From the NCBI GenBank assembly GCA_015061165.1, contig SUXC01000014.1, positions 3,584-67,583 of the forward strand: DNA of 64,000 bases, written 5' to 3'. The number at the start of each line of letters is the position of its first letter. Within the stretch, counting starts at the first letter, position 1. Of this stretch, positions 514 through 53,226 are shown piece after piece. Both the position numbers and the translations under genes were made by a program. This DNA is from Bacteroidales bacterium (GTDB lineage: Bacteria; Bacteroidota; Bacteroidia; Bacteroidales; Paludibacteraceae). The notes under the pieces were generated by a model. It searched no databases, was not told the origin of the DNA, and worked only from the letters and a program-made list of their open reading frames with translations.

Positions 514-3500
514 TTATTCCTTAAAGAACTTGCCAATACGCGTACCTACTTGTACGATATACATACCTGCTGGCAACGAAGCCACCGGCAATGTAGTGAC
601 AGCGCCTTCTACCGCATGGCTCATCACCGCTTTGCCATTCAGGTTATAGACCACAATGGTTTGCTTTGCATCCGCCTCGTTCATAAACACATTGAGGTAT
701 GCCTCAGCAGGATTAGGATAGAGCATGAGCGCCAAACGGTTGTCTGCTGGCAGGTTCTCTACATCCACCGTGCTTTCATCCGCAAAACTGATAGGTTGGG
801 TGCAAGTCTCGCCAAACACGTTGGTGATGAATGCACGTACATACGAGCCTTGATAACCTGCGTAGGAGAACGTGTTGCCTATACCCACCACAGTGCTACG
901 AGCAGATGATGCCGCGCTGGAAGTCTTGTCCGTGGCATAGATCCAATGTACCAATCCATTGGCATGGATAGTGATGGTCTTATTGGTTTCATCCACATGG
1001 ATAGCACTGATACGTGGGGCTTTGCCTTCGCCCGTACCTGCTGGTTCGTAGCAGAAATAGCTCTCGCCTTTGCGCATAGCATCTTTCAGTTCGTCGGTGG
1101 TAAGATCCTCCATGAGCATGAAATTGTAGTTGCGGAAGAGTTGGTCGTTGTTGTGCGCATCATCGCATGAGTAGCCATAAACAGGGCGATGAGGCATAGT
1201 GCGCTGCAAGATTTGATCCCATAGGATACGGTCGTTAGGGCGACGATTGCCTTGGTTGTACACCTCCAAACCAATCAATGATGGGAAGGTAAGGAAGTTA
1301 TTGGCATGCCAACCCGGACCATCTTTTTGGGTCTCACTATAGGTATTGTCAATACTCCAATACTGTCCTGGGTGGTTGATGATTTGCATACCGCCGAGGG
1401 CGTAGGTGTAGGCATATGACTCCTGCAAAGAAGCAAACTCCTGTCCTTGACGACCCGTGAAGAAATCGTTGTGGTGGTTGAATTGTCCGCCTGTGCGCTC
1501 GCTCCAACTGTTGGTATTATCCTTGCTGAGCTCATTGCCCGGAACAGCCAACATACCCAATGCAGCAGGGTCGCGTGCAGGTACGGTGCTCATATATTGG
1601 GGGAATAACTCCCATGGATAAGGGTTGTAGTCATGGTCGGTGAGGGAGAGAATCTTATAGCCCGCAGCATGGTATTTGTCCACAACGTAGGCGGTGGTGA
1701 AGCCATCGCTGGCGTCGTTGGATTGGGTGGTATGGGTATGGAAATTGCCCTTGAATTGGTTGATAGTAGCCCAATCAATATCGGCGTATGGATTGTTGGA
1801 TATAGCAGTATTAATGGTCTGTCCTTCCACCACTTTGACATACACCGCACGGTGCGCCTTGGTGGTAGTGCCGTTGAGTTCGATGTCCAAATAGAAGCCA
1901 TAGATACCACTTTCTGGCGATGAAATCGTATAAAACTCTTCGCCATTGCTACCCTTGCTGAGGGTGATAGCAGAAGAAGGTTGGTTGTTATGATTCATGC
2001 GGAAATGGACATTATAGCCATTCTTGTTGGCAATCTTAACGGACATCTTCACAGATGTACCTGGATGTACGACAGCAGGCTCTACCTTAAAGTATTCCAA
2101 ATCAATATCCGAACTACCCCATGCAGTTTCTTCCACCGTGAGTTGGTTGGTCAGATAGGAGTAACGGACATTGGCTTTCAGGCAGTTAGCCGATACAGTG
2201 GTGCTGACCAATTCGCCCATGTCACTACCCGAGTTCACACTACCATAATGCACGGAAACGGTCTTGTCATCGGTGAGGGAGATAGTGGCTGTCAGTTCGT
2301 AGTTGCTGCCAATAGTCATAGTGGTGCCATTGACCTTGAAGTGCTCAGAAGAAGCAGCAGACTGCTCGTAGCTACCGTCTGCAAACACAGCCACACGCTG
2401 CCAAGAAGTAGTCTTGCGGGTGTTCTTAAAGCCGATGTCTTTGGGCGAAGTGAGTAGCAAATCGCCATCGCAGTTGCTACCACTGTTGAGGTTCCAGTAG
2501 TAGGAGTATTTCTTGCTATCCACAGGAATCTCTTTGATTAAGAGTTGTGCGGGAGTAGCAGTCTTGCCATCGCGGTAGAAATTGCCCTTTTGTGTAGGTG
2601 TGCCATCGCAGGTGAGCGAGGTGGTGCCTTCGCCCTTCATGAAATACCATGTGTGGGCTGTATAATCGGTAGTCTGATAGTTATTGGCTATTCTCGCTCC
2701 CATAGTAGGAACTACGCTTGGTGGACCTTGCACTACTTCTCCGAAGACTAATCCCCATGTACGGTCATCGTGCTCGCCCATGACATCCAAGACGTATGAG
2801 AGATAACCTCGGTTATTGAGCCACTGATTGTAGTAATCAATCTCATCGGTTGTCCAATGGGTATCAGCCGATGTTTGTACAAAAGCAAAGCGAGAGTCGG
2901 TTGGCGTAAGCCGCTCGTTCTCGATGAAACCGCGCATTTCGTATTTATTATACCAAAAAGCAGGGGAGAACATAGCGCATTTGCCAAATAGTTCGGGGTG
3001 CTTCATGGTGGCATAGAAAGCGAAGAGTCCTGCCACATCTGCACCCATGATGGTGCATGCCGATTTATCCGATGAAATCGCATATTTCTGCTCGAAGGCA
3101 GGCTTAAAGTCCTCTACGAATCCTTTGAGGAAAGCATCCGCTTGACCTGTACCCGCGAAGTCCTCGTTCGCCCAAGGAGTAAACTCAGGTAATTGGGCAT
3201 AAATCACGGCTATGATGCCTACTTCAAATCCTTGCTCCTCCAATTCAGCCACCGATTTTGCTACGCCCCATGAGTCGGAATAGAGAATACGGTCGCCCAT
3301 TTCGGTATCAGAACCTGCATCGCGGTAGCGTTGGTGGCGACCAAACATATAGGTAACGGGGTATTGCTTGGTATTGTCATAGTTGGTAGGCAAGAGGATT
3401 TGTACAGGATAATCCTTGCCTGCAAATGTCCAATTCTCTACGATTCCAACGGCAGTATAGGTGTTTCGCCAGCGTGCTACCACATCGGGATTGCCAACGG

Positions 3501-3825
3501 TCTTGCGATTGGACACCTCGCCATTGGAAGCAGTGACTTCCACATATTTCCAATCGGGTCCGCAGACGTATTTATATCCATCGGATGCACTAATATCGGC
3601 AGTCGTAATACCTGCTACCGTAACGGTGAATTGGTCTTTTCCTTCCACTTTGTTCATGGCCACACCCGCCCCCGCAGCCCAACTGCTGAGTTCGGGAAGA
3701 GCACCTACAACGTAGCAATGGGTAGTGCCAGTAGGAACATTTACGCGAAAAGTAACATCGGCTCTTATTGCCGAAGAGATTGCCAAACAAATGCCAATCA
3801 ATAGAAGAGAGAATTGCTGTCTCAT
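514..3825 (-). CDS. Secreted multidomain protein: CBM20-like / esterase-like / PHP phosphoesterase / T9SS C-terminal sorting domain
   Basis: 1103-aa ORF with signal peptide MRQQFSLLLIGICLAISSAIRA. Esterase-family block YPVTYMFGRHQ...IMGADVAG. PHP motif GNFHTHTTQSND...LTDHDY. The C-terminus LYPNPA...VVYNLNGK...GMYIVQV is typical of Por/T9SS sorting domains. Confidence 0.8.
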   Translation of the reverse strand: MRQQFSLLLIGICLAISSAIRADVTFRVNVPTGTTHCYVVGALPELSSWAAGAGVAMNKVEGKDQFTVTVAGITTADISASDGYKYVCGPDWKYVEVTASNGEVSNRKTVGNPDVVARWRNTYTAVGIVENWTFAGKDYPVQILLPTNYDNTKQYPVTYMFGRHQRYRDAGSDTEMGDRILYSDSWGVAKSVAELEEQGFEVGIIAVIYAQLPEFTPWANEDFAGTGQADAFLKGFVEDFKPAFEQKYAISSDKSACTIMGADVAGLFAFYATMKHPELFGKCAMFSPAFWYNKYEMRGFIENERLTPTDSRFAFVQTSADTHWTTDEIDYYNQWLNNRGYLSYVLDVMGEHDDRTWGLVFGEVVQGPPSVVPTMGARIANNYQTTDYTAHTWYFMKGEGTTSLTCDGTPTQKGNFYRDGKTATPAQLLIKEIPVDSKKYSYYWNLNSGSNCDGDLLLTSPKDIGFKNTRKTTSWQRVAVFADGSYEQSAASSEHFKVNGTTMTIGSNYELTATISLTDDKTVSVHYGSVNSGSDMGELVSTTVSANCLKANVRYSYLTNQLTVEETAWGSSDIDLEYFKVEPAVVHPGTSVKMSVKIANKNGYNVHFRMNHNNQPSSAITLSKGSNGEEFYTISSPESGIYGFYLDIELNGTTTKAHRAVYVKVVEGQTINTAISNNPYADIDWATINQFKGNFHTHTTQSNDASDGFTTAYVVDKYHAAGYKILSLTDHDYNPYPWELFPQYMSTVPARDPAALGMLAVPGNELSKDNTNSWSERTGGQFNHHNDFFTGRQGQEFASLQESYAYTYALGGMQIINHPGQYWSIDNTYSETQKDGPGWHANNFLTFPSLIGLEVYNQGNRRPNDRILWDQILQRTMPHRPVYGYSCDDAHNNDQLFRNYNFMLMEDLTTDELKDAMRKGESYFCYEPAGTGEGKAPRISAIHVDETNKTITIHANGLVHWIYATDKTSSAASSARSTVVGIGNTFSYAGYQGSYVRAFITNVFGETCTQPISFADESTVDVENLPADNRLALMLYPNPAEAYLNVFMNEADAKQTIVVYNLNGKAVMSHAVEGAVTTLPVASLPAGMYIVQVGTRIGKFFKE

Positions 3826-3851
3826 AGGTATAATGATTTTGTACGTTTATA

Positions 3852-4610
3852 CTATAAAAATAGTTCTTGTGGATAGTCAATGTGTGTGAGGAAAAGGCCT
3901 TCGGCAGGGGCAGAATCTCCTGCGGCGCAGCGGTTGTGTTGTGCAATGACCTCGGCAAACTGCTCTTTGGTCATCTTACCACGACCCACCTCAAACAATG
4001 TTCCTACTACGGCACGCACCATATTGCGCAAGAAGCGGTCGGCTGCAATAGTGAACACAGCGTGTCCGTTGCCTAATTCTCGCCATTCTGCAAGCGTGAG
4101 GTCGCAAATAGTAGTTTTCACATCCGTATTCGTGCGGCAGAATGAAGCAAAATCCTGTTTGCCAATCAACCATTGCGCTGCCTCGTTCATGGCAGCAAAG
4201 TTCAGTCCTGGGCGCACGCGCGTGGCTTGTTGGCAGAGGAAAGGATCTTTGTGATCCACGATATGGTACTCGTAGGTGCGGCGCACGGCAGAGAACCGCG
4301 CATGCGCATCATCCGTTACAGGATAGATGTCAAAAATAGCGATGGAATCGGGCAAAATGCCGTTGAGGCGAAAGAGCAAATTTTGGCGATTGGCAATTGG
4401 CGATTGGCAATTGGCGAGATCGAAATGCGCATACATCTCGCGCGCATGGACACCCGCATCGGTGCGACCAGCGAAAGTGAGTGGTATCTCCTCGCGGAAA
4501 ATCATAGCCAACGCCTGCTCCATCGTCTCTTGAACAGTAATGCCATTGGGCTGGCGTTGCGAGCCGTGAAAGGCAGTGCCATCGTATGCAAAGCGAATGA
4601 AATAACGCAT
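3852..4610 (-). CDS. truA: tRNA pseudouridine(38-40) synthase TruA
   Basis: 252 aa. MRYFIRFAYDGTAFHGSQRQ and the catalytic GRTDAGVHA motif are canonical TruA. Confidence 0.93.
   Translation of the reverse strand: MRYFIRFAYDGTAFHGSQRQPNGITVQETMEQALAMIFREEIPLTFAGRTDAGVHAREMYAHFDLANCQSPIANRQNLLFRLNGILPDSIAIFDIYPVTDDAHARFSAVRRTYEYHIVDHKDPFLCQQATRVRPGLNFAAMNEAAQWLIGKQDFASFCRTNTDVKTTICDLTLAEWRELGNGHAVFTIAADRFLRNMVRAVVGTLFEVGRGKMTKEQFAEVIAQHNRCAAGDSAPAEGLFLTHIDYPQELFL
4384..4418. repeat. 5 x 7 nt TGGCGAT/TGGCAAT module inside truA
   Basis: tggcgat tggcaat tggcgat tggcaat tggcgag. On the minus strand it encodes ANCQSPIANRQ. Confidence 0.9.
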
Positions 4611-4618
4611 AATTCTTG

Positions 4619-4648
4619 CCTTTAACCTTTAACCTTTAACCTTTAACC
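4619..4648. repeat. CCTTTAA x 4 array at the flippase stop / truA start junction
   Basis: cctttaacctttaacctttaacctttaacc. It contains the flippase stop codon (4629-4631). Confidence 0.9.
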
Positions 4649-6167
4649 AAACATTTCGCACTTGCTGGTTGATTTCGGGGGAGAGGTCTTTGAACCATGC
4701 TACGGCACAACCTCCTCCGATGAGGACTATGGTGCGAATAATACTACTTAACCATATATTATTGATTGGCAAGTAGGCTTGCCACAGGAAATTCAGATTG
4801 AGTATCACCAAAATCAGAAGAAGAATCTTCAGATGTTGGCGCGTGAAAGTGGGTGCACGGAGCGTGTAACGCACTGTCAATGTGATTAATAGGAAATATA
4901 TTGCGTAAGCAATGAGATTGCTAACGGCTGCTCCATTCATACCAAAATAAGGAATGAGAAGATTATTGAGCACTATGGATAGAGCCGTTAGAATAAAGGA
5001 AAACAATAATGAGAAGGCATAGAAGCGGGAATAGTTGAGTGCCGAAGAACTAAACGAGCAAACGGCAATAATGAGTTGGCTGGTGCCTAACATCAATACC
5101 ACTTGGCGGGCAGTAGCGTATGTCTCGCCATTAGGCAGAATATGGAAGATGAGATCAATATTGAGCCAAATGAGGCAAAGAATCATGCCGCCTATGAGCA
5201 AGAGCGTACTGCTGACCTGCTGCATAAGGTGAGCCGTTTCACGCTGATTATTTTCCTTGATAGCCGTTGCTAATTGTGGTGAGGCAATGGCTGTCATGGA
5301 GCGATAGGGTATGCTGACCATTACGGCTATATAGGTAGCAATGGCAAAGATACCTGTATAATTTAGTCCCATCTCAGCGGTAATAAAGAAGGAAGAGAGC
5401 GTTGGTGCAAGCACGCTGGCTACTGCGGAAACGAGCAAAAACCCAGTGTAGAGCAGGTACTGGCGCACCAATGGGCGGTTCTGGCGCAAGAACTCCCAAT
5501 CGGGGCGGAGCGACACTTCACCTAACGAGAATAGATAGACCATATTGCAGCACATAGCCACAGCATATACGCCACACAAGGCTACCACGAAACCATCTAT
5601 ATCCACCACGCGAAACGCATAGAGCAAATAAGCAAGGAGCAATCCGATACGCGTGATGAGTTCGCGCACAGCACGAGGCACTACGATATGCATACGCACA
5701 TTAGCATTGGTCTCAAAAACAGTCTGATAGAGCATAAAGAACGCCATCGGGAGTACCATATAGTAGTACTCTACAAAGAGAGGGGACTTCTCCCCAAACC
5801 AATGACTAAGTGGTTCGTGGCATGCACAATAAATAGCGGTGAATAGGGCGAAACCTACGAGTGGAACAATCAGTGTCCAGAAGAAAAAACCGTGGTCGGA
5901 AGAATTTTGAATTAAGAATTTTGAATTTTGAATTACTTTATTTGAGGAGCTCTTAAAGTGCGGATAGAAGCGAATAATAGAAGATGACGTGCCGAGTTGG
6001 GCAAGTCCGATGAAGAGAGTGGCAGCATCTACCAATACGCGCGCCAGACCAATCTCCTCGGCTGTGAGGAAACGGGTGAGTACGAAGAACGTAGTAACAA
6101 AGCCCACCGCCACCCCAATATAGGTGACGATGGTGCCTTGAAAACTCTGTTTGGCGATGATGCCCAT
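4629..6167 (-). CDS. Wzx/MATE-like oligosaccharide flippase (polysaccharide biosynthesis protein)
   Basis: Polytopic membrane ORF. I place the start at the MGIIAKQSFQGTIVTYIGV methionine (rc ATG 6165-6167), because the track extension to 6239 reads through a repeat array. The stop codon lies inside the CCTTTAA array. Confidence 0.78.
   Translation of the reverse strand: MGIIAKQSFQGTIVTYIGVAVGFVTTFFVLTRFLTAEEIGLARVLVDAATLFIGLAQLGTSSSIIRFYPHFKSSSNKVIQNSKFLIQNSSDHGFFFWTLIVPLVGFALFTAIYCACHEPLSHWFGEKSPLFVEYYYMVLPMAFFMLYQTVFETNANVRMHIVVPRAVRELITRIGLLLAYLLYAFRVVDIDGFVVALCGVYAVAMCCNMVYLFSLGEVSLRPDWEFLRQNRPLVRQYLLYTGFLLVSAVASVLAPTLSSFFITAEMGLNYTGIFAIATYIAVMVSIPYRSMTAIASPQLATAIKENNQRETAHLMQQVSSTLLLIGGMILCLIWLNIDLIFHILPNGETYATARQVVLMLGTSQLIIAVCSFSSSALNYSRFYAFSLLFSFILTALSIVLNNLLIPYFGMNGAAVSNLIAYAIYFLLITLTVRYTLRAPTFTRQHLKILLLILVILNLNFLWQAYLPINNIWLSSIIRTIVLIGGGCAVAWFKDLSPEINQQVRNVWLKVKG
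5902..5936. repeat. 5 x 7 nt GAATTWW module inside the flippase CDS
   Basis: gaatttt gaattaa gaatttt gaatttt gaattac. It encodes KVIQNSKFLIQNS. Confidence 0.9.
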
Positions 6168-8836: not shown

Positions 8837-10351
8837 TTATTTTTTCTTAATGAGTGCCTTTCCATCCAAACGGTAGAAAATGACACAATATATAATAAGG
8901 AGTATAGTGCCTATACCCATTTTAATCCATTCGTTGATTGGCAATAAGTGTGCCAAAGTGTAATATCCTGCCAAAAGTGTCAGAACAAGCAGGGTGTATA
9001 TGCCAATTCGGCGCAAATCGTATGGTATCTCGAGATGTTTGCGTCCCACGAAATAAGAGAGCAACATAATCACGAGGTAGCATACGGTACTGCTGGCTGC
9101 GGAAGCCATATAACCTATGCGAGGTACGAAGATGGCTTGCAGCGCAAAGGTAATGACTACTCCGATAATGGAGAAGTAGGCACCCCATTGCGTTTTGTCG
9201 GTGAGTTTGTACCAAAAACTGAGGTTGAAATATACGCCTTGGAAGATATACGTCCAGAGGACAACAGGTACGATTTTTAGTCCTTCCCAATAGGCGGGGG
9301 CGATAATAAATTTTAGTAGATCAAGGTAGAATATCATCCCCAACAAAATCATGTAGGAGAAGATAATATAGTATTTCATTGCATCAGCGTAGGCAGCCAC
9401 GGATTCGCGGTCTTTGTGCTTGGCAAAGACGAATGGTTCGTAGGCATAGCGGAAAGCCTGCGTGAACATCATCATCACCATTGCCACCTTGAAACATGCG
9501 CCGTAGATGCCCAATTGCGCTTGTGCATCGGCTCCATCGTAGAAGAAGGGGAATAAGATACGGTCCAGCGTTTGGTTCATGATACCGCACACACCCAATA
9601 CCAAGAGGGGCAACGAGTAGCGAAGCATCTGCTTCAGTAATTTGCCAGAAAATAGTTGTCGGGAGTCGGGAGTCGAGAGTCCGTAATCTGCGCGAAAGCC
9701 TTCAAGAATCGCTGGCAACAAACACAATGTCTGTATACCCGTAGCCATGATGTTTGCCACAAAGACATACCCTACTCCATAGTTGGGATTATACCACGAA
9801 GAGATGATTGCCCAATCCTGAATCTTCGGACAGAGTACGAGGAAGAAGAGATTGAGAATAATATTGAGGAATACGAATAGGAGTTTGAGTGCAGCAAACT
9901 GCAATGGGCGTTTCTTGTAGCGCAAGTACGCAAACGGTATGCTGGCAAAAGCATCCATTGCCACTACTATACCGAGCAGTGCAATGAACTCGCTGTGTGT
10001 AGGATAACCCAATGCGTTGGCTATAGGCATTCGCCATACCACACACGCTACCGCGAAAAGCAGTGATGTGGTAAAAAGCGCAATGAGCGAAGTACTATAA
10101 ACCGTCTTGGGATTTTCTTCGGCTTTGTTGGCAAAGCGGAAGAAGCCTGTTTCCATACCATAGGTGAGGATTACCAAAAGCAGTGCCGTCCACGCATAGA
10201 GGTTGGTAACTATACCATAGTCGGACTGCTGTTGCAGCACGTATGTGTATAGCGGAACGAGCAGCCAGTTGAGAAACTTGCCGACAATGGATGACACGCC
10301 ATAAATGGCGGTCTCCTTAGCGAGTATTTTCATTTGCAGGTTGCTGCTCAT
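8837..10351 (-). CDS. Wzx/MurJ-like oligosaccharide flippase family protein
   Basis: 504-aa polytopic membrane ORF. ATGA start/stop overlap with rsmI upstream. Confidence 0.8.
   Translation of the reverse strand: MSSNLQMKILAKETAIYGVSSIVGKFLNWLLVPLYTYVLQQQSDYGIVTNLYAWTALLLVILTYGMETGFFRFANKAEENPKTVYSTSLIALFTTSLLFAVACVVWRMPIANALGYPTHSEFIALLGIVVAMDAFASIPFAYLRYKKRPLQFAALKLLFVFLNIILNLFFLVLCPKIQDWAIISSWYNPNYGVGYVFVANIMATGIQTLCLLPAILEGFRADYGLSTPDSRQLFSGKLLKQMLRYSLPLLVLGVCGIMNQTLDRILFPFFYDGADAQAQLGIYGACFKVAMVMMMFTQAFRYAYEPFVFAKHKDRESVAAYADAMKYYIIFSYMILLGMIFYLDLLKFIIAPAYWEGLKIVPVVLWTYIFQGVYFNLSFWYKLTDKTQWGAYFSIIGVVITFALQAIFVPRIGYMASAASSTVCYLVIMLLSYFVGRKHLEIPYDLRRIGIYTLLVLTLLAGYYTLAHLLPINEWIKMGIGTILLIIYCVIFYRLDGKALIKKK
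9661..9681. repeat. 3 x 7 nt GGGAGTC module inside the second flippase CDS
   Basis: gggagtc gggagtc gagagtc. It encodes LSTPDSR. Confidence 0.8.
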
Positions 10352-11016: not shown

Positions 11017-11038
11017 AATTTTGAATTATGAATTATGA
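11017..11038. repeat. GAATTWW units at the rsmI start / upstream gene stop junction
   Basis: aatttt gaattat gaattat ga. It contains the stop codon at 11033-11035. Confidence 0.75.
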
Positions 11039-11758
11039 GAAGCGGCGTTTGAGTACGTTCTCGAAGAGTTGCACTGCAGTGGACTCTTTGTCCCAATCGA
11101 AGTTATTGCGCACATAATCCATGGCCTCGCTTAGCGAACCGAGACCATTAATTTCATCCAAGGTCTTTTGCATCAATTCACCGTTGCCTGCAAAGAGTTC
11201 GCGTTGGAAAAGGAAACGGTCGCCTAAAGAGATGGCTTGACGGATATCCTCTACGGCTGTGCCAAAGAGCGAAGTCTGAAGAGGTTGTGTAGCGTTGTGT
11301 AGCTGTTGTGTAGCGTTGTGTAGTGGTTGTGTAGGTTCTGCCACAGGCTCTGCCTTTGCTTCTGGTTGTGGAGCAGGTGTTGGCTCTGTTACTGGTTCAA
11401 CTACCTCTACTTCATCTAAAATCTCTAATGACTCTATTGGTTCTATAGATTCTAACGGTTCTATAGATTCTATAGTTTCTTGCTTCTCTAATTCTTCTTT
11501 TACTTCCTCTTGTGGTTCTTCTTCCACGATGAGTTCGATTTCCACTTCGGGCTCAGCAGTTTGTGCTGCCACAGCACCTGTAGCAGCGAGGGCTGCCACT
11601 TCGGCTTGCAAGGTGGCTATCAAGGCTTTCGCCTCATCGCCTTCTTGCCTCATCGCCTCATTACTAGCCTCTAATTGCGCTACACGCGCCTCCAGAGCAG
11701 AAAGTTTCTGCTCCAGAGTAGTCGTGTAGTCGGTTATTGCTTGAATAAGATTGTTCAT
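11033..11758 (-). CDS. Hypothetical protein: coiled-coil N-terminus, acidic/Pro-rich repeats, conserved C-terminal domain
   Basis: 241-aa ORF tightly packed between rsmI and the POT transporter. It has internal repeats (ESIEPLESIEPIES; PLHNATQQLHNATQPL). I recognise no family. Confidence 0.6.
   Translation of the reverse strand: MNNLIQAITDYTTTLEQKLSALEARVAQLEASNEAMRQEGDEAKALIATLQAEVAALAATGAVAAQTAEPEVEIELIVEEEPQEEVKEELEKQETIESIEPLESIEPIESLEILDEVEVVEPVTEPTPAPQPEAKAEPVAEPTQPLHNATQQLHNATQPLQTSLFGTAVEDIRQAISLGDRFLFQRELFAGNGELMQKTLDEINGLGSLSEAMDYVRNNFDWDKESTAVQLFENVLKRRFS
11283..11334. repeat. GTTGTGTAG 10/11-mer array inside the hypothetical CDS
   Basis: Five copies. It encodes PLHNATQQLHNATQPL. 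Confidence 0.8.
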
Positions 11759-11761
11759 AGA

Positions 11762-13829: not shown

Positions 13830-14354
13830 CTACAATGTTGAGTAAATTTTCAACTTTTCTTCTGTAGTAAAGGCAGCAAAACGAGCTTTCCAATATGCCG
13901 ACTTTTCGTGGTCGAATTGTCCGCGGTCGATTTCCGACTCTTTGCCTACTTGGTGCAAGATTGGGTTATTACCTTCGCCCATATGTTCTGCCCAAGTAAG
14001 TTCCGCAAAAGGAGAGTCTTGCTGCTGTCCTATATGATGCAATTCATATGGATCTCCATTAGGATCGCGCGGCGGAAAGCCTTCTCCAATAAGGTCAGCA
14101 TTGTTGTACTCTGCCCAACGGTCGTAGTCTTTGAGGCGTTTTTGCGTGCTGGTTTTGAGCCAAGTATTTCTGCGAATGGAGAAATCTGCCCAATTGATAT
14201 CCGTTCGGCATAATGCCCAACGTTCTCCGATTAGGCATGCTTGTAGTTTAGCGCGCATATAAATCTCCGCTTCTTCCATAGTAGCAATGTAACGGATAAC
14301 ATCTTCAGGCCAGTTAGTTCGCTGACTAATGAGTTGTTGCTCTTGAGATGTCAT
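13830..14354 (-). CDS. Stand-alone HNH/EndoVII-fold nuclease of the LHH type
   Basis: 174 aa. The segment DPYELHHIGQQQDSPFAELTWAEHMGEGNNPILH fits the LHH toxin-nuclease signature (LHH ... H ... LH). No signal peptide and no large N-terminal delivery domain. Confidence 0.7.
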   Translation of the reverse strand: MTSQEQQLISQRTNWPEDVIRYIATMEEAEIYMRAKLQACLIGERWALCRTDINWADFSIRRNTWLKTSTQKRLKDYDRWAEYNNADLIGEGFPPRDPNGDPYELHHIGQQQDSPFAELTWAEHMGEGNNPILHQVGKESEIDRGQFDHEKSAYWKARFAAFTTEEKLKIYSTL

Positions 14355-14485
14355 TTCTCTCCTAAATTGTTAGTAGGAATATTCAAACGGCTGTTGCAGT
14401 TTGGGCATTTTGGTAGCACCTCTTTAATGAAGCCACCTACGGTAAATACATGTTTGCATCGTAAGCAACGACGAAGTTGTAGCAT
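14351..14485 (-). CDS. 44-aa zinc-ribbon peptide, translationally coupled to the LHH nuclease gene
   Basis: Hand-translated as MLQLRRCLRCKHVFTVGGFIKEVLPKCPNCNSRLNIPTNNLGEK. It has two CxxC pairs 16 residues apart. Its TGA overlaps the nuclease ATG (ATGA). It is too short for the ORF track. Confidence 0.5.
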   Translation of the reverse strand: MLQLRRCLRCKHVFTVGGFIKEVLPKCPNCNSRLNIPTNNLGEK

Positions 14486-15445: not shown

Positions 15446-16534
15446 TTATTCCACCACTAAGCACCAGCCGTGTGTGTCTTCGGTGCGACCGTACTGGATG
15501 TCCTGCAAAGCGTGGTAGAGTTTTGTCAATACAGGACCTGGCTTGTCGCCAAAAGAATATGTAATATCATTATCTGGGTCATAGACCTTTGTCAATGGCG
15601 AAATAACACAAGCCGTACCACAAGCTGCTGCCTCCTGCATGTCTGCCAATTCCTCTACACGGATATGGCGACGAGTAACCTTCATACCCATCTCACGCGC
15701 CAAAGTCATCAACGAATCGTTGGTAATGCTGGGCAAAATAGCAGTGCTGCGAGGGGTGAGGTATTCGAAAGTTAGATCGCTTCGCTGTAGATTGGCTACG
15801 CCTGTAGATCGCTTGGCTGTAGTGGGGGCAGAGCCCTGTAGATGGCTACGCTGTTTGATTGCGATAAAATTGGAAGCGGTACACTCATCAATATACTTGT
15901 GCGTTTTGGCATCAGTGAACATGCACTCATAGCCCATAGCGTGCGCCGCTTCGCTGGCGCGGAAAGATGCCGCGTAGTTACCACCCACTTTCCAACAGCC
16001 CGTGCCTTGTGGCGCAGCACGATCGATGGTGCGGTTCACGATAGCAGGCATGCCTTTGAAACCATTGGGGAAATACGGACCAATAGGCGTAGGGACAACC
16101 ACAAACTCGCAATCTTTGCCTGGCCCTACACTGATATCAGGCGTAGTAGCAACGAGCAACGGACGGAAATAGAGCGTAGCACCAGTTTCGTAAGGAGGAA
16201 GGAAAGCGATGTTCTTCTCCAGTGCCAACAATATCGCTTCGCAAAAGAGTTCTACAGGCACGGGGGTCATCAGCAGTCCTTCGGCAGAATGGTACATGCG
16301 TTTGGCGTTCTCCTCCATGCGGAAGATACGCACCTTATCGTCCACACCACGAAAGGCCTTCAGTCCCTCAAAACACTCTTGGCCATAGTGCAGGCCTGTG
16401 GCAGCGGCATGGATAGGAATCATCTTGTCGCGCGTGGCATAGGGGCGTTCCCATACGCCATTCTTGCATGCCGCACGGACAATATAGTCCGTTTCGGTAT
16501 AGTGAAATGTCAGTTTACTCCAGTCTATATTCAT
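15446..16534 (-). CDS. ilvE: Branched-chain amino acid aminotransferase
   Basis: 362 aa. Class IV aminotransferase blocks (GLHYGQECFEGLKAFR, ILPSITNDS). Contains a repeat-encoded extra segment of about 25 aa. Confidence 0.9.
   Translation of the reverse strand: MNIDWSKLTFHYTETDYIVRAACKNGVWERPYATRDKMIPIHAAATGLHYGQECFEGLKAFRGVDDKVRIFRMEENAKRMYHSAEGLLMTPVPVELFCEAILLALEKNIAFLPPYETGATLYFRPLLVATTPDISVGPGKDCEFVVVPTPIGPYFPNGFKGMPAIVNRTIDRAAPQGTGCWKVGGNYAASFRASEAAHAMGYECMFTDAKTHKYIDECTASNFIAIKQRSHLQGSAPTTAKRSTGVANLQRSDLTFEYLTPRSTAILPSITNDSLMTLAREMGMKVTRRHIRVEELADMQEAAACGTACVISPLTKVYDPDNDITYSFGDKPGPVLTKLYHALQDIQYGRTEDTHGWCLVVE
15772..15853. repeat. CTGTAG-containing imperfect repeats inside ilvE
   Basis: ctgtag at 15785, 15802, 15817 and 15836. 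tagatcgctt occurs twice, 32 nt apart, and ggctacgc occurs twice. It encodes QRSHLQGSAPTTAKRSTGVANLQRSDL. Confidence 0.8.
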
Positions 16535-17100
16535 ATCTTCATAATGGTCTCAGGACCATATTCAAATAACAAGTCCAATATACTCTGTCCATTGCCAAAG
16601 CAAGGTTCTAAGTCCAATCCCTGCCAGTCGCTGGTTCGATTCTCGCCTAATAGCCTCTTTGCCTCTTCGCCTTTCGCATCGTTCGCTATCAAACGAATGA
16701 TTACCTCATGGATTTTCTCGTTAAAATCGACCAAAAAGCGCGTTTCTTGTTCGTAGAAAGGACGGAAGAAATCTGCGTAGTAATCGAAATAAGGTGTGCG
16801 TTTGTAGGCACTCATAAGGGCAATCCAATGCTGGTGTTGCCAACGCTTCTGGAAACTAATCTCCACATCGCGCGTGAACTGTTTGCTATCCACACGCTTC
16901 ACGGGCACGGTGAGCGTGAGGCGATTGGCAATTGGCGATTGGCAATTGGATTGAGAGTCGTGCGGCACAGTAATCGTACACCTATTGCGGTAGGTTTGCT
17001 TCGGAAAACTCTCCATCACCTCAATCTGGACTACCGATGGATTCGCCAAAAACTGGCGGTACCATTCTACAGGCCCCATATATGTTGTTGGCAATATCAT
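16531..17100 (-). CDS. WbqC family protein
   Basis: I place the start at MILPTTYMGPVEWYRQF (rc ATG 17098-17100). KQTYRNRCTI is the WbqC-family block. The track extension to 17211 reads through a heptamer module. Confidence 0.8.
   Translation of the reverse strand: MILPTTYMGPVEWYRQFLANPSVVQIEVMESFPKQTYRNRCTITVPHDSQSNCQSPIANRLTLTVPVKRVDSKQFTRDVEISFQKRWQHQHWIALMSAYKRTPYFDYYADFFRPFYEQETRFLVDFNEKIHEVIIRLIANDAKGEEAKRLLGENRTSDWQGLDLEPCFGNGQSILDLLFEYGPETIMKI
16919..16953. repeat. 5 x 7 nt TGGCGAT/TGGCAAT module inside the WbqC-family CDS
   Basis: aggcgat tggcaat tggcgat tggcaat tggattg. Bases 16920-16949 are identical to 4385-4414. Confidence 0.9.
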
Positions 17101-17105
17101 ATTTT

Positions 17106-17140
17106 TGGAATCGGGAATCGGGAGTCGAGAATTAGGATTT
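17106..17140. repeat. 5 x 7 nt GGGAATC-type module filling the wbqC-start / lepB-stop gap
   Basis: tggaatc gggaatc gggagtc gagaatt aggattt. The gap runs from 17101 to 17140. Confidence 0.85.
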
Positions 17141-18535
17141 TTATTCAAAATTGCTGAGTCCGATACGGTTCCAACGAATATGGCCTTTGCCCCATGGGTT
17201 GTCTTTCTCAATACTGAGCCATACGAACATTGGGCGGCCTACGATATGGTCTTCTGGCACAAAGCCCCAGTAACGGCTATCGGCTGACTTATGACGGTTG
17301 TCGCCCATCATCCAATAATAATCCATCTCAAAGACGTATGGTTCGCCCACTTTCATTGGTTTGAACTCATACGCATCGGCAATACGCTTATACAGGTGGA
17401 AGTTCTCCTCAGTAATCATCACCGTATCGCCCTTGGCAGGGATATAGATTGGTCCGTAGTTATCGCGTGTCCACGAGTTGTGTCCCAAAGGATACACCTC
17501 GCCACCTTGGTCTTCGGGCTCAATCTCTATGCTGAGGACATGGCTGTTCTTCTCGAGTTCGGCTTTCATCTCGGCAGTCAGTGGCAGGCGATACAATCCG
17601 TTGCCATTGCTCTCGCGGTCTTCTTTGGAAATACCCAATTTGCTCAAGTAACTATTACCCAACACATGACCATCGGTGCGAACGATATAGTTGTATTGCA
17701 AGTATGGGTGTACGGGTTCTTTCTGACCGTCGATATAAATCACATTATCAATGATTTGCAACGTGTCGCCTGGTGTGCCTACGCAACGTTTGACATAGTT
17801 CTCTCGGCGATCCACAGGGCGAACAACAATCTCGCCAAAGACATCCTTGCGGTTCTCTACCGTGCGCTTGCCATAGTAGTGGCAGAGAGTATAGTAGTCG
17901 GGATTTTGCATCTTCGTGCAGACCGTATCGCCCGTGGGGAAGTTAAACACCACAATATCGCCTTTCTCTACTTTGTCCCAACCACGGAGGCGTTTATACT
18001 CCCATTGTGGGTTGTCGAAATAACTCTTTCCGCCCCAAGGGAAAGTGTGTTGCACGAGAGGCATAGAGAGAGGTGTATTGGGCACACGTGCTCCGTAACT
18101 CATCTTATTCACACAAAGGAAATCGCCCACACGCAGGGTTTTCTCCAACGAAGAAGTGGGGATTTGATAATTCTGGAATATATAAACATTGATGAAATAC
18201 ACCGCTACCAACGCAAAAACGATGGCATCTATCCACGAACATATGGTATAGAGCGTGCTATTAGCATGCGGATTCTTTTCCTTTTGATTCCCGATCCCCG
18301 ATTCGCGATTCCTATTATCCACATTATCTGGTTTGTACTTCTTCCACCAGTTCCAAGGGATATACTTGGTAGTGAACATATCAGCAATAATTGGCAACAG
18401 TATGAGCCAACCGAGGCTTGCCCAATCGCCCCATGCTACCCAAACGACAAACGCGATGTAAATCGCGCACCATATGCCACAAGAAACCCACCCTTTGGTG
18501 GTTACTTCCTTGATTCTATCTTGAAAACTTTTCAT
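17141..18535 (-). CDS. lepB: Signal peptidase I
   Basis: Conserved SPase I box GDNRHKSADSRYWGFV and Ser box region IPTSSLEKTL. I place the start at the MKSFQDRIKE ATG (rc 18533-18535); the track start at 18568 is a TTG inside the promoter box. Confidence 0.9.
   Translation of the reverse strand: MKSFQDRIKEVTTKGWVSCGIWCAIYIAFVVWVAWGDWASLGWLILLPIIADMFTTKYIPWNWWKKYKPDNVDNRNRESGIGNQKEKNPHANSTLYTICSWIDAIVFALVAVYFINVYIFQNYQIPTSSLEKTLRVGDFLCVNKMSYGARVPNTPLSMPLVQHTFPWGGKSYFDNPQWEYKRLRGWDKVEKGDIVVFNFPTGDTVCTKMQNPDYYTLCHYYGKRTVENRKDVFGEIVVRPVDRRENYVKRCVGTPGDTLQIIDNVIYIDGQKEPVHPYLQYNYIVRTDGHVLGNSYLSKLGISKEDRESNGNGLYRLPLTAEMKAELEKNSHVLSIEIEPEDQGGEVYPLGHNSWTRDNYGPIYIPAKGDTVMITEENFHLYKRIADAYEFKPMKVGEPYVFEMDYYWMMGDNRHKSADSRYWGFVPEDHIVGRPMFVWLSIEKDNPWGKGHIRWNRIGLSNFE
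18286..18313. repeat. 4 x 7 nt GATTCCC-type module inside lepB
   Basis: gattccc gatcccc gattcgc gattcct. It encodes NRESGIGNQ. Confidence 0.85.
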
Positions 18536-18654: not shown

Positions 18655-18698
18655 AATCACTAACGAATCACTAACGAATAACTAACGAATCACTAACG
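18655..18698. repeat. 4 x 11-mer aatcactaacg
   Basis: Read directly in the lepB/TPM divergent spacer. Confidence 0.9.
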
Positions 18699-18717
18699 AT
18701 TGACTGCTGAAAAGCGG

Positions 18718-18806
18718 GGGAATCGGGAGTCGGGAATCGGGAATCAAGCTGGGGAATCGGGAATCAGGAATCGAGAGTCAAGTGGGGGGATCGGGAGTCG
18801 GGAGTC
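18718..18806. repeat. Three blocks of GGGARTC heptamers (4 + 4 + 3 units)
   Basis: Blocks at 18718-18745, 18752-18779 and 18786-18806. Confidence 0.9.
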
Positions 18807-23800: not shown

Positions 23801-24806
23801 TTTCGCTTTCGAAGCAGGCGGCAGTCTTGACCAATTAGAGATAGTTTATCACACCTCGGAGCGCGAATACCAACAGGGCGAGCGCGTGGTATGGCTGTGC
23901 CATGCTCTCACCGCTAACTCCGACCCATTGGACTGGTGGCCAGAGATGGTGGGCGACGGTTGCTGCATTGATCCGAACAAAGACTATGTAGTGTGTGTCA
24001 ATATCTTCGGCTCTGCCTACGGCACCACAGGACCGAGAGATTTCGGGAATCGCGACTCGCGAATCCCGAATCAAAAAGGATATCTCGATTTTCCCAAGTT
24101 CACGGTACGCGATACAGCCCGCCTCTTCACTTTGGTGCGCGAGCATCTGGGCATAGAGCAAGTAGATTTGTTGGTGGGCAGTTCGATAGGCGGATTCCAT
24201 GCGTTGGAATGGGCAATTATGGAAGGCGAACGCATTCGCCATGCCGCGTTTATTGCCACTGCGCCTCGCGTGTCGCCATGGCTGAGCGCATGGATGGAGG
24301 TGCAACGTATGGCACTGGAGGCCGACCCCACGTTCCACGCCTGCGAGTCGCTGGATGGCGGATGCAAAGGGTTGGAGGCTGCACGCGCTATTTCGCTCAT
24401 CTCCTACCGCAGTTTTGATGGCTACAACCTCACGCAATACGAGACCGATGATGACTGCCTCTTTGCCTGTCGTGCAGCCAGTTACGAGCGCTATCAAGGC
24501 GAGAAACTGGTCAAACGCGGGTTTGATGCCTACTCCTACTACTACCTACTCCACTGCGTAGATAGCCAAAACGTAGGTCGCCATCGCGGTGGCATCAAAG
24601 CAGCATTGGCACAAATCAAAGCCCAAACGGTGGTGATAGCCATCACATCCGATGGACTCTTCCCACCATGCGAGAGTAGCGAGTGGGCAAAACATATCCC
24701 CCACGCCAAGTATTACGAGATAGAATCACGATTCGGACACGACGGATTCCTACTCGAAACCGAGCAAATCACACAAATAATAAATAGTTTAGAGGTTAAA
24801 GGTTAG
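23772..24806 (+). CDS. metX: Homoserine O-acetyltransferase
   Basis: 344 aa alpha/beta hydrolase with nucleophile elbow GSSIGG and C-terminal FGHDGFL. 29-nt overlap with metY. Confidence 0.88.
   Translation: MHLHKLTTHNFAFEAGGSLDQLEIVYHTSEREYQQGERVVWLCHALTANSDPLDWWPEMVGDGCCIDPNKDYVVCVNIFGSAYGTTGPRDFGNRDSRIPNQKGYLDFPKFTVRDTARLFTLVREHLGIEQVDLLVGSSIGGFHALEWAIMEGERIRHAAFIATAPRVSPWLSAWMEVQRMALEADPTFHACESLDGGCKGLEAARAISLISYRSFDGYNLTQYETDDDCLFACRAASYERYQGEKLVKRGFDAYSYYYLLHCVDSQNVGRHRGGIKAALAQIKAQTVVIAITSDGLFPPCESSEWAKHIPHAKYYEIESRFGHDGFLLETEQITQIINSLEVKG
24038..24072. repeat. GGGAATC-type module (4 clear units, possibly 5) inside metX
   Basis: (agatttc) gggaatc gcgactc gcgaatc ccgaatc. It encodes FGNRDSRIPNQ. 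Confidence 0.8.
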
Positions 24807-24819
24807 AGGCTAAAGGCAA
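24785..24819. repeat. RAGGYTA heptamer module spanning the metX stop
   Basis: tagttta gaggtta aaggtta gaggcta aaggcaa. Confidence 0.75.
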
Positions 24820-24846
24820 GAAATATGCGGCTCTGCCGCCCCGCCT

Positions 24847-24888
24847 TTACACCTTACACCCTACACTTTACACCACACACCATACACT
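24847..24888. repeat. 6 x 7 nt TTACACC-type array just upstream of thrA
   Basis: ttacacc ttacacc ctacact ttacacc acacacc atacact. Confidence 0.85.
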
Positions 24889-39788: not shown

Positions 39789-40970
39789 ATGAAACGGTTA
39801 AATTCGAATATACTGAGCATAGGAATCACCCTACTACTCGTAATCGTAGTAGTGGTTAGTTCGCTGGTAACCAGTCATATCGTAGAACAGTTTGAACAAG
39901 AAGAGCAAAAGAAAATCGAACTATGGGCAGAAGCTACACGACAATTCATATTGGCAGGCGAGAACGAGAACATTGACCTCCTCCTCCAAGTGATGGAAGG
40001 TAACACCACTATCCCCGTCTATATGGTGGATACCAACTACAACCTACTCCTATCACGCAACGTACAAGAACCCAAACGCAACGTAGAACGATTCTACACC
40101 AAGAAAATCAACGAACTACGCGCCACACAAGAACCTATCGAAGTGCGCATCTCCGACAGCGTGATGCAATATATCTATTACGAGCAATCATCCACATTGC
40201 AATGGCTGTCGTATTTCCCTTATATTCAGTTGGTTGTTATGCTGGCTTTGGCAGCCTTGGCTGCTATAGCCCTGCTCATGGTACAACGCAGCGAGAAGAA
40301 TAGCCTATGGGTAGGACTCTCCAAAGAGACGGCTCACCAACTCGGTACCCCTATCTCCTCGCTCAACGCATGGAACGAACTGCTGAAAGCCACCTACCCC
40401 AACGACCCGTTACTCCCACAAATGGACGAGGATATTCACCGTCTGCAAATGATAGCCGAGCGTTTTTCTAAGATAGGTTCGCAACCGACATTAGAGGAAC
40501 GCGAAGTGCTGCCTATCGTACAATCCGCCATAGACTACATGCGCGCGCGAACATCAAATAAGATAGAATATAAATTGGCTATTGGCGATGGGCAATTGGC
40601 TATTGGCGATAGAGCAAGAGCGATGCTGTGCGCACCGCTATTTGAATGGGTGATTGAAAACCTATGCAAGAACGCCATAGATGCCATGGACGGGAAAGGA
40701 AGTATCACGATTGAAGTGAAAACAGAAAACGGAAAGGGGAAAGCGGAAAACCTATATATTGATATTACTGACACGGGCAAGGGTATTGACCGCAGGAACT
40801 TCAAACGGATATTCCAACCCGGATACACAAGCAAAAAACGCGGATGGGGATTGGGACTGAGCTTAGGCAAGCGTATCATCGAAGATTACCATCGAGGCGA
40901 ACTCTTCGTGAAGCAATCGCAATTGGGTGTCGGTACGACGTTCCGAATCGTGTTGTGTAGCGTGGTGTAG
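39789..40970 (+). CDS. Sensor histidine kinase
   Basis: 393 aa with two TM segments. H-box ETAHQLGTPISSL. ATPase boxes NLCKNAIDA, DTGKGI, GWGLGLS. The stop codon lies inside a decamer repeat array. Confidence 0.85.
   Translation: MKRLNSNILSIGITLLLVIVVVVSSLVTSHIVEQFEQEEQKKIELWAEATRQFILAGENENIDLLLQVMEGNTTIPVYMVDTNYNLLLSRNVQEPKRNVERFYTKKINELRATQEPIEVRISDSVMQYIYYEQSSTLQWLSYFPYIQLVVMLALAALAAIALLMVQRSEKNSLWVGLSKETAHQLGTPISSLNAWNELLKATYPNDPLLPQMDEDIHRLQMIAERFSKIGSQPTLEEREVLPIVQSAIDYMRARTSNKIEYKLAIGDGQLAIGDRARAMLCAPLFEWVIENLCKNAIDAMDGKGSITIEVKTENGKGKAENLYIDITDTGKGIDRRNFKRIFQPGYTSKKRGWGLGLSLGKRIIEDYHRGELFVKQSQLGVGTTFRIVLCSVV
40576..40610. repeat. 5 x 7 nt TGGCKAT module inside the histidine kinase CDS
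   Basis: tggctat tggcgat gggcaat tggctat tggcgat. It encodes LAIGDGQLAIGD. Confidence 0.9.
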
Positions 40971-44421: not shown

Positions 44422-44491
44422 GGGAGTTGGGAATTAGGAATTAGGAATTATGAATTTTGAATTATGAATTTTGAATTTTGAATTATGAATA
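44422..44491. repeat. 10 x 7 nt NNGAATT array between dnaX and the metallophosphoesterase gene
   Basis: gggagtt gggaatt aggaatt aggaatt atgaatt ttgaatt atgaatt ttgaatt ttgaatt atgaata. The last unit carries the start codon at 44485. Confidence 0.9.
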
Positions 44492-49990: not shown

Positions 49991-50025
49991 GATTCCCGAA
50001 TCGCGACTCCCGATTCCCGAGTCCT
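49991..50025. repeat. 5 x 7 nt GAYTCSC module filling a 37-nt gene gap
   Basis: gattccc gaatcgc gactccc gattccc gagtcct. The gap runs from 49987 to 50023. Confidence 0.9.
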
Positions 50026-53041: not shown

Positions 53042-53094
53042 CCTATTCCTCAGGTTATTGTTTAGGTTCCCCAACAATTCCTTATCCGCACCAC

Positions 53095-53130
53095 ACAATA
53101 ACCATACAATAACCATACAATAACCATACT
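53095..53130. repeat. 3.3 x 11-mer acaataaccat
   Basis: Read directly. Confidence 0.9.
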
Positions 53131-53156
53131 ATTCCTTACCTATATAGCACCCAGAA

Positions 53157-53226
53157 GTTACCTTTACACCTTATACTTTACACCTTAAACCTTAAACATT
53201 AAACCATACACCCTACACTACCAACA
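53157..53226. repeat. Array of about 10 x 7 nt TTACACC/TTAAACC units
   Basis: Eight clear units at 53164-53219. Confidence 0.85.

Follow-up and report, generated by a model that had tools for sequence, protein, structure and literature searches.

An in-frame, repeat-built loop in the branched-chain aminotransferase IlvE of a Paludibacteraceae genome and its variation within the clade

The ilvE locus

The DNA analysed here (the window) is a stretch of 64,000 nt from a Bacteroidales bacterium of the family Paludibacteraceae (assembly GCA_015061165.1, contig SUXC01000014.1, positions 3,584 to 67,583), and the feature under study is a loop built from short repeats inside ilvE, the gene for a class IV branched-chain amino acid aminotransferase (BCAT). 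ilvE lies at 15446–16534 on the minus strand as an intact open reading frame (ORF) of 362 aa, and the loop (15767–15853, minus strand, 87 nt) is in frame and encodes 29 residues, Q228 to F256, where the canonical turn has 2–3 residues. In the following, WIN denotes the ilvE of the window, L-numbers denote genome or metagenome loci and P-numbers denote protein homologs. IlvE matches PF01063 (Aminotran_4, Pfam) with an E-value of 7.5e-22 and 78.7 bits against a cut-off of 28.5, and K182 in WKVGGNY, the lysine of the catalytic motif, is invariant across 34 IlvE homologs. The protein thus bears both marks of a fold type IV BCAT, an Aminotran_4 score above the curated cut-off and the pyridoxal phosphate-lysine motif, and its best solved relatives are BCATs, with Deinococcus radiodurans BCAT (3uyy) at an E-value of 8e-73.

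Outside the loop, ilvE is under strong purifying selection: comparison of WIN with L001, L002 and L004 gave a core dS of 0.46–0.61 and dN of 0.013–0.028, a dN/dS of ~0.03–0.05. The repeat-loop insert recurs in the independent assemblies L001 and L002, and a related form of it is found in L003, L028, L039 and the P0001 cluster with its 405 member sequences. A reading of the window made from its letters (the sequence-only reading) had allowed that the locus might be a pseudogene with a second, intact ilvE elsewhere; the pseudogene part of this was rejected because the gene is intact, its core is under purifying selection and K182 is invariant, and an artefact was rejected on the same evidence of core selection and K182.

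Architecture of the repeat-built loop

The sequence-only reading had described imperfect repeats at 15772–15853 (plus strand: four copies of ctgtag and two each of tagatcgctt and ggctacgc) and had taken them for a genuine, stop-free insertion into a core enzyme. All of these repeats are present, and the minus-strand translation of the interval is QRSHLQGSAPTTAKRSTGVANLQRSDL. A repeat search and Tandem Repeats Finder (TRF) agreed on a tandem array with a period of 15, 3.2 copies and a score of 54; the shuffled window yielded no TRF array with a score of at least 40, and the chance expectation for the 17-mer unit is 0.01 occurrences.

Read on the coding strand from 15853 to 15767, the loop consists of five degenerate units of 15–19 nt followed by an ACTTTC tail, the units being CAGCGTAGCCATCTA (15 nt), CAGGGCTCTGCCCCCACTA (19 nt), CAGCCAAGCGATCTA (15 nt), CAGGCGTAGCCAATCTA (17 nt) and CAGCGAAGCGATCTA (15 nt), in which a TCTACAG anchor is joined to a mini-hairpin of the GCGNAGC type. 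Unit 1 (15839–15853; all units on the minus strand) reads CAG-CGTAGC-CATCTA and holds the mini-hairpin GCGTAGC and an anchor. Unit 2 (15820–15838, 19 nt) reads CAG-GGCTCTGCCC-CCACTA, with a hairpin GGGC-TCT-GCCC and a degenerate anchor, and is conserved in L001, L002, L003, L028 and L039. The hairpin of unit 3 (15805–15819) is broken, its counterpart being an intact GCGAAGC in L001, L002, L003 and L039, while unit 4 (15788–15804, 17 nt) reads CAG-GCGTAGCC-AATCTA with the hairpin GGCGTAGCC. Unit 5 (GCGAAGC) and the closing anchor together form ACAGCGAAGCGATCTAAC (15771–15788), which is the exact consensus of the repeat family described below and the sole unit that the short allele (L004, P0006) retains.

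The array is preceded by a degenerate leading anchor, ATCAAACAG (15851–15859, minus strand), which overlaps codons I226-K227-Q228 and equals ATCTAACAG with a T to A change that removes an in-frame TAA. The adjoining residue A225, in the block IAIK, goes with the allele type of the window: IAIK is confined to WIN, L001, L002, L004 and P0006, all of which have that allele type, and GCAATCAAA (the A-I-K codons) is found solely with it, all other alleles having IGI[KR]. Unit 2, with 19 nt, shifts the reading frame and unit 4, with 17 nt, restores it, so the repetition is a property of the DNA and not of the peptide. The window anchor TCTACAG (ATCTACAG) is stop-free in all frames, unlike TCTAACAG. 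Tryptic peptides expected from a loop-bearing IlvE are SHLQGSAPTTAK, STGVANLQR and SDLTFEYLTPR. No inverted repeats were found in 15700–15920, RNA folding of the insert was no better than that of shuffles (z −0.78), and no Rfam 15 family matched the insert.

Position of the insert in the enzyme

In 22 other Bacteroidales IlvE proteins, the stretch that separates SNF[IF] from the following P always consists of the nine residues GIK[ND]NTY[VI]T; the window has 36 residues there, 27 (81 nt) more. L046, the most basal member of the clade, has GIKGNEYLT with a short turn (GN), and 3uyy has a turn of 2–3 residues at the loop site. The two conserved blocks are thus normally a few residues apart (2–3 in the 22 Bacteroidales, L046 and 3uyy), as the sequence-only reading had stated, and its view of a genuine in-frame insertion into a core enzyme is borne out by the intact ORF, the low core dN/dS and the invariant K182; the insert contains no stop codon and the loop is open in all alleles read. 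Loops of equivalent length in relatives, which had been named as evidence against an insertion, gave a divided result: the distant Bacteroidales are without the insert, and close relatives carry variable and sometimes longer ones. The insert is not unique to this genome and is part of a clade-wide hypervariable hot spot.

An AlphaFold (AF2) model of IlvE was computed from 34 close homologs (mean predicted local distance difference test score, pLDDT, 63.7; predicted template modelling score 0.70) and was used only for placing the flanking strands and the low-confidence loop. In the model, β-strands 223–230 and 254–260 bracket residues 232–251, which have pLDDT <50, and the model fold compares to BCAT crystal structures with template modelling scores of 0.68–0.73. 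In the BCAT of Giardia lamblia (PDB 7lv7), ~13 extra residues (FGIKDIQRDGAGKIVSCTYVTPKS) occur at this very turn, and since that enzyme was crystallised with them the turn tolerates extension in a folded enzyme. The loop is probably a hydrophilic, disordered surface excursion; a surface loop, as the sequence-only reading had proposed to model, agrees with the strands that flank the low-pLDDT stretch, in a model that is poor overall.

Clade-wide variation of the loop

A genome scan gave 49 ilvE loci in metagenome-assembled genomes that carry a Paludibacteraceae or uncultured Bacteroidales label and whose record titles point mostly to ruminant gut samples; the site was readable in 48. About 15 loop forms occur in these 48 loci, with further forms among the protein homologs, making at least ~20 distinct alleles, and the loop proper, bounded by the conserved I-K/R/S and E-Y, spans 2 to ~40 residues. 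The best 120 IlvE homologs (79–92% identity) are 336–374 aa long, and their length differences lie essentially at this turn. Every loop form read in the clade (48/48 loci) is in frame and stop-free, no frame-shifted allele was found among the 48 clade loci read or the 120 homologs listed, and the allele of L004, although 66 nt different in length, stays in frame. A phase-variable contingency locus was rejected because the alleles read include no frame-shifted one and length changes in frame.

The alleles are built from DNA repeats of 7–15 nt, with the frame often changing between copies. Among the repeat types are GAGGTTA/AAGGCGA heptamers (EVKGERLEAKGW), AGGCGANN octamers (RRLGDKAKGW), GAATCGG/GAGTCGA heptamers (HHESGVENRESYF), ACAATGCTAC decamers, hairpins such as CCCCTCCCTAAAGGGAAGGGAG and, in the ilvE loops of L013 and L023 (~3679–3795), a second anchor-plus-hairpin architecture (GTTTAGAG). 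The hairpins of this second architecture are variable (GCCCG-CAAAA-CGGGC and CCCCATAACGC…GCGTTATCGGGG) and it encodes SPRPTSPQCLENARKTGYSL; a 43-nt relative of it lies elsewhere in L024 (4279–4321).

Distribution and conservation of loop alleles

When the ilvE core was placed in a neighbour-joining tree, loop type and gene tree disagreed: alleles of the LQGSA…TAKRS type fall on four different branches, those of the HHESGV type are likewise spread over several, and L007, the nearest core relative of the window, carries the RLGDKAKGW loop. By sliding comparison, the members of the pairs L003/L023, WIN/L007 and L033/L011 are ~95–100% identical across the gene and have unrelated loops, the differences being confined to the loop and no more than 30 nt on each side. 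The incongruent alleles and the loop-confined differences together point to short-patch recombination of loop cassettes; the simplest reading is that whole cassettes are replaced by homologous recombination via the flanks, which are very conserved. In L004 and P0006 the short allele, IAIK-QRSDLTF (7-residue), corresponds to the window allele minus 66 nt, from the CAGCG of unit 1 to the CAGCG of unit 5, and would most simply be a deletion between direct repeats.

The inserts of WIN and L001 are identical at 83 of 87 positions, with 1 synonymous difference where ~10 are expected from core dS, and those of L028 and L039 are identical at 91 of 93, with cores that differ by ~25–30%; loops in divergent genes can be 96–98% identical. 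Arrays in MiaB-like, GltD-like and amidase genes are likewise conserved beyond synonymous sites. In ilvE, the excess conservation of the insert is explained by recombination, and its standing as proof of nucleotide-level selection was downgraded since the tree and the sliding-window comparisons show allele replacement.

A dispersed family of anchors and mini-hairpins

The sequence-only reading had missed the nature of the repeats: their units belong to a dispersed family in which anchors alternate with mini-hairpins, and which is also found between genes and in other genes. Metagenome contigs were scanned with the 18-mer ACAGCGAAGCGRTCTAAC, which gave at least 120 matches. Among the matches listed, nearly all contexts of the 18-mer are tandem arrays of anchor and variable hairpin, at more than 100 metagenome loci, some of them intergenic. 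Within the clade, spacers between genes of L028 (4436–4496) and L034 (2200–2250) contain ACAGCGAAGCGATCTAAC in the form CTAACAGCGAAGCGGTCTAAC. The 64-kb window has no copy of the 17–18 nt unit outside ilvE, so the search for other copies that the sequence-only reading had proposed came out negative in the window and positive in metagenome loci and clade spacers.

In the main family the anchor is constant, GGTCTAACAG (GGTCTAAC-A), and alternates with a small hairpin of variable stem. The stems vary yet stay complementary (GCGAAGC, GTGAAAC, GGCGAAGCC, GTCCGAAGGAC and GCGATAGC; further types are GCGCAGC, GTGCAAC, GGCTATTTATAGCC and GCACCGCAGGTGC). A perfect stem of at least 2 bp at the fixed position was present in 141 of 149 non-query units versus ~80 in shuffles, and one of at least 3 bp in 45 of 149 versus ~17; GNA or GNNA loops were present in 89 of the 149, and many compensatory stem types were seen. 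Plain TCTAACN heptamer runs often adjoin the hairpin units. Among coding copies there are anchors in which TAA is changed to CAA, CAC or TAC, or which have become TCTACAG. Mini-hairpins of GCGNAGC DNA are exceptionally stable, with a reported melting temperature of 70–76 °C (PMC13037366).

Rfam found no family on the arrays at 13 array-bearing loci, its only matches there being an unrelated tRNA and Flavo-1 RNA, and the viral contigs scanned had no match to the 18-mer. A literature search on the anchor motif GGTCTAACAG and the tandem repeats of the clade found nothing relevant. The repeat family and the cassette hot spot appear to be undescribed; in-frame insertion of repeats into genes is, as a general behaviour, already known.

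About ten lake and marine contigs (L082, L107, L109, L112, L117, L132, L149, L173, L181 and L192) were set aside, since the 18-mer is there embedded in another, longer element that is conserved (GACGTCAGAyATAATT…GAAAAAGAGyGTTTTTGA…TCTGACGTCTrACAGCGAAGCGGTCTAACTTCTGA). With its long closing stem this element may be a structured RNA; it had no Rfam match at the gathering score in L082, L107, L109, L112 and L132.

Arrays inside other genes

By an ORF heuristic, 34 of ~123 arrays among the matches listed, about a quarter, lie inside long ORFs, and the ten array hosts tested by Pfam are ordinary conserved proteins; hosts confirmed in this way include GH26, CCA/polyA polymerase, MurF, a MiaB-like radical-SAM enzyme, amidase, a GltD-like oxidoreductase, a PdxB-like dehydrogenase, MurG and RlmN. 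In these hosts the inserts read …LTAKRSNSE.V…QRSGLT…. In MurG, the inter-domain linker after KIILTGNPVRQNL has ~8 residues in most of the 120 homologs listed (P0121–P0240), and a subset carries array-derived TAKRSNS…GLT inserts of several lengths; judged from these alignments, the linker is a second hot spot with the same present, absent and variable pattern as in IlvE.

Intragenic arrays are oriented in sense in 34 cases and antisense in 2, and intergenic arrays occur in both orientations (++ 15, −− 10). The intragenic bias is explicable by the encoded peptides, which are hydrophilic in sense (TAKRSN/QRSGLT) and hydrophobic or Cys-containing in antisense (VRPLRC/LDRFAV); a transcription-linked signal as the cause of sense-only intragenic arrays was downgraded, since intergenic arrays run both ways and the peptides are the simpler explanation.

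Two further observations concern array hosts. Compared with its L116 orthologue, the PdxB-like gene of L155 carries 18 inserted nt of CCTAACC-type heptamers (CCTAACCCCCTAACCCCTAACCC), in frame and ~230 nt downstream of its array. In L188 (~2439–5771, minus strand), a stop-free array bridges an ORF ending in …FYIIFQKLHERF, the putative C-terminus of an RND efflux pump, and a lipoprotein-type signal peptide (…LALSLSSCG) that would belong to the next gene, and the whole is one continuous ORF of 1111 aa.

Tandem repeats across the window

TRF arrays per 10 kb number 8.1 in the window, 6.6 in the clade loci, 1.6 at the same locus in other Bacteroidales and 0 in the shuffle, so that short tandem arrays are 4–5 times denser in the window and clade loci than in other Bacteroidales. 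The window holds 52 non-overlapping TRF arrays, in which periods of 7, 14 and 21 dominate (at least 10 arrays have period 7, besides those of period 14 and 21) and many of which lie exactly at gene boundaries. Dense stretches include 18655–18803, 44431–44490, 52429–52488, 53090–53219, 4383–4417 and 24789–24888. GGGAATC-type heptamers occur at 18712–18803, 17107–17132 and 49991–50024, with GGGAATC itself at 18718–18773, and the decamer type of the ilvE loops also occurs at 11283–11334 and 40952–40992.

Nineteen arrays of the window are set over 90 nt within ORFs and read in the frame of the gene, among them those in TruA (LANCQSPIANRQ; 4383–4417), a WbqC-like gene (SNCQSPIANRL; 16920–16949 and 16653–16686), signal peptidase S26 (RNRESGIGNQ; 18286–18312), a PagL-like protein (three copies of QSPIAN; 52429–52488), a histidine kinase (LAIGDGQLAIG; 40574–40607) and a flippase (9658–9681). 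These arrays are heptamer- and octamer-based, and QSPIAN and the reverse-strand reading LAIG recur in them. Both array sites of the WbqC-like gene are hypervariable too (45 clade loci aligned). In L034, an AGGCGAR array has an identical 3' end in ilvE and in the neighbouring WbqC-like gene (2380–2445); in L041, two identical stretches of 41 nt, at 2852–2892 and 3680–3720, are shared between the loop of ilvE and the WbqC-like gene, in the C-terminal part of the latter; and in L040 one repeat array is common to two genes (616–656 and 2864–2892). One array in two genes of one genome suggests ectopic copying between arrays.

Just downstream of ilvE, a gene for a protein with an LHH-family HNH/EndoVII nuclease domain (PF14411) lies at 13830–14369 on the minus strand, followed by small unannotated ORFs up to 15400; the PF14411 domain is typical of polymorphic toxins. 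An ORF of 242 aa at 11033–11761 (minus strand), which has no Pfam match, contains three different tandem repeats, namely the decamer GCTACACAAC, the 9/18/27-nt repeat TCTATAGAT and the octamer TCGCCTCA, and is either a protein rich in repeats or repeat DNA that does not code.

Origin of the insert

The explanation we favour, and hold to be likely, is that the insert is a translated, decayed array of hairpin repeats in the IlvE turn, grown by slippage, recombined between alleles and carried as a tolerated passenger. The segment would be a tandem array of five decayed units of the dispersed family, set in the tight turn between two β-strands and read through as a hydrophilic, probably disordered loop that leaves the enzyme functional. 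The turn would have been filled repeatedly by short tandem repeats of different kinds, of which the genomes of this ruminant-gut clade of Paludibacteraceae have unusually many; arrays would form, lengthen and shorten through slipped-strand or template-switch events that the direct anchors and the hairpins promote; loop alleles with ~10–30 nt of flank would move between lineages by short-patch homologous recombination; and selection would keep only in-frame, stop-free, hydrophilic versions. Most likely, the insert is thus a passenger of a genome-wide repeat process and not an adaptation of IlvE.

Several points weigh against this explanation. The inserts and arrays show 1 synonymous difference where ~10–16 are expected; recombination explains this in ilvE, but selection at the level of the nucleotides may also act, and one compensatory stem swap, GCCGAAGGC to GGCGAAGCC, hints at it. 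The breakpoints are unusually close to the loop in three independent comparisons, and a dedicated insertion or exchange mechanism could account for this. Within the 64-kb window the family occurs only in ilvE, which leaves no neighbouring copies for a local genesis. The origin by slippage or template switching is read from the architecture of the arrays only, the translation of the insert from its universally in-frame, stop-free status, and its disordered surface position leans on the homologous turn in solved BCATs and the low pLDDT of a poor model.

We give minor credence to the broader view that the arrays are an undescribed class of functional, structure-selected DNA or RNA elements of gut Bacteroidales, which could be ops-like sites for polymerase pausing or factor loading or could be written and exchanged by a dedicated system, and which would be kept even in essential genes, with surface turns such as that of IlvE as cassette sites. 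Its more specific form, in which the arrays are functional nucleic-acid elements under selection even in coding sequence and the ilvE copy is a working site, is unlikely; roles to be considered under it are ops-like non-template-strand hairpins for RNA polymerase pausing and recruitment of NusG-family proteins, priming, or nuclease protection. Such elements would fit the conservation beyond synonymous expectation in ilvE and in the MiaB-like, GltD-like and amidase genes, the concentration of array variation at the loop N position together with the stem swap, the strong stem-loop signal, the stability of GCGNAGC hairpins (PMC13037366) and the 34 to 2 sense bias of intragenic arrays. The conservation in ilvE is, however, already accounted for by allele swapping through recombination and the sense bias is explicable by peptides, with intergenic arrays lying in both orientations; moreover, the window copy is decayed (hairpin of unit 3 broken, anchors degenerate), the RNA fold of the insert is unremarkable and without an Rfam match, and L004 lacks four of the five units while its gene is still conserved.

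A lead in the functional direction comes from class-1 opsX elements of Bacteroides, putative non-template hairpins with 5'-GCG...AGC stems (e.g. CTGCGAAGCATA and CCGCGTAGCGCA) that recruit UpxY (PMC11213015). In the window, units 1, 4 and 5 have GCGTAGC, GGCGTAGCC and GCGAAGC and unit 3 a broken GCGAAGC; four of the five window units and most family units match GCGNAGC/GCGNNAGC or are stem-extended. An ops element is one site of 12 nt, located in an operon leader beside a pause signal, whereas the present family forms multi-copy arrays in spacers and coding loops, and the likeness is one of resemblance in the GCG..AGC motif and the sense orientation, known here from the DNA letters.

A miniature mobile element, either a repetitive extragenic palindrome (REP) with its associated tyrosine transposase (RAYT) or a MITE (a miniature transposable element with inverted repeats), inserted by a transposase that recognises a hairpin and an adjacent tag, is improbable. 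The family is dispersed and bears hairpins, and the complementary strand of the window units (the plus strand) reads GTAGAT-hairpin-CT and so contains GTAG, a tag typical of one REP superfamily; the main family, on the other hand, reads GTTAG (GTTAGACC-hairpin). The hairpins have 7–15 nt with stems that vary between adjacent units, and REPs are conserved palindromes of 20–40 bp, so that a REP was rejected on palindrome size and conservation; no terminal inverted repeats or target-site duplications were found, the arrays being direct repeats bounded by anchors, and a MITE was rejected on that account. Pfam detected no transposase (including Y1_Tnp) or reverse transcriptase domain, and hence no RAYT, among the 49 ORFs of the window. 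REPs inside genes and in-frame Rickettsia palindromic elements (RPEs) are documented (PMC3733652), and the identical 41-nt stretch in two neighbouring genes of L041 would also suit a mobile element, but alleles travel with their flanking codons, which recombination fits better than point insertion.

That the loop arose purely in situ by tandem duplication and vertical inheritance, unrelated to other repeats, is very improbable: the tandem structure would agree with it and the single-unit allele of L004/P0006 could be an ancestral seed, but the exact unit is arrayed at more than 100 unrelated loci and in clade intergenic DNA, and loop alleles are incongruent with the core tree. Absence of the segment from the mature protein, by translational bypass or RNA-level removal, or else a pseudogene or assembly artefact, can hardly be credited, for although CAGCG direct repeats flank the insert and could in principle serve as take-off and landing sites, all loci read and ~20 alleles are in frame and stop-free, no stop follows the take-off codon, purifying selection on the core is strong and the insert is present in L001, L002 and, in related form, the P0001 cluster, which are independent assemblies; a programmed bypass of the T4 gene 60 or byp type was rejected because the alleles are open and in frame and the insert is stop-free.

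Read as a translated passenger array, the insert gives a concrete explanation for an odd segment in a core enzyme and would mean that a group of abundant, uncultured ruminant-gut Bacteroidales tolerates and exchanges hairpin and heptamer arrays in many housekeeping proteins. Gene annotation and protein-family length models would be affected, as such inserts resemble errors or pseudogenes, and loop alleles could serve in strain typing as sharp recombination markers. The arrays bear on the origin of non-B DNA repeats in coding sequence and on their persistence there and, were they functional, would be signals embedded within coding sequence. The ilvE insert itself is probably a passenger, yet it is a pointer to a lineage-wide phenomenon.

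Comparison with known systems

An extension at the same turn is known in the Giardia BCAT 7lv7; as far as its protein sequence shows it is not repeat-built, and there is no sign of allele turnover. In behaviour, the closest systems are Rickettsia RPEs, REPs inside genes, and long simple sequence repeats (SSRs) and heptamer repeats. RPEs and REPs are described as short dispersed hairpin repeats found between genes and in frame in conserved genes, where they add surface peptides while function is kept (PMC3733652). The present family is like them in being dispersed, hairpin-forming, and both intergenic and in frame in conserved genes. RPEs and REPs are, however, single palindromic units of 20–150 bp with conserved sequence, whereas here units of 15–20 nt are arranged in tandem with a constant anchor and a variable hairpin of 7–15 nt; further differences are that no transposase is seen in the window and that one protein site has many unrelated alleles exchanged between lineages.

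Long SSRs and repeats of seven nucleotides (Mrazek 2007, cited in both PMC4679880 and PMC4692102) include the heptanucleotide tandem repeats of the cyanobacterium Calothrix PCC 7601, GGGAATC, reported as enriched in Xanthomonas, and TAACTGA in Beggiatoaceae, cyanobacteria and Bacteroidetes. The published heptamer repeats are reported to be mainly intergenic and under-represented in coding regions (PMC4692102). As with these, the window and the clade are rich in periods of 7, 14 and 21 nt, and array length varies between close relatives; in contrast to them, many of the repeats described here lie in frame in housekeeping genes, and the units in ilvE are 15–19 nt long with an embedded mini-hairpin.

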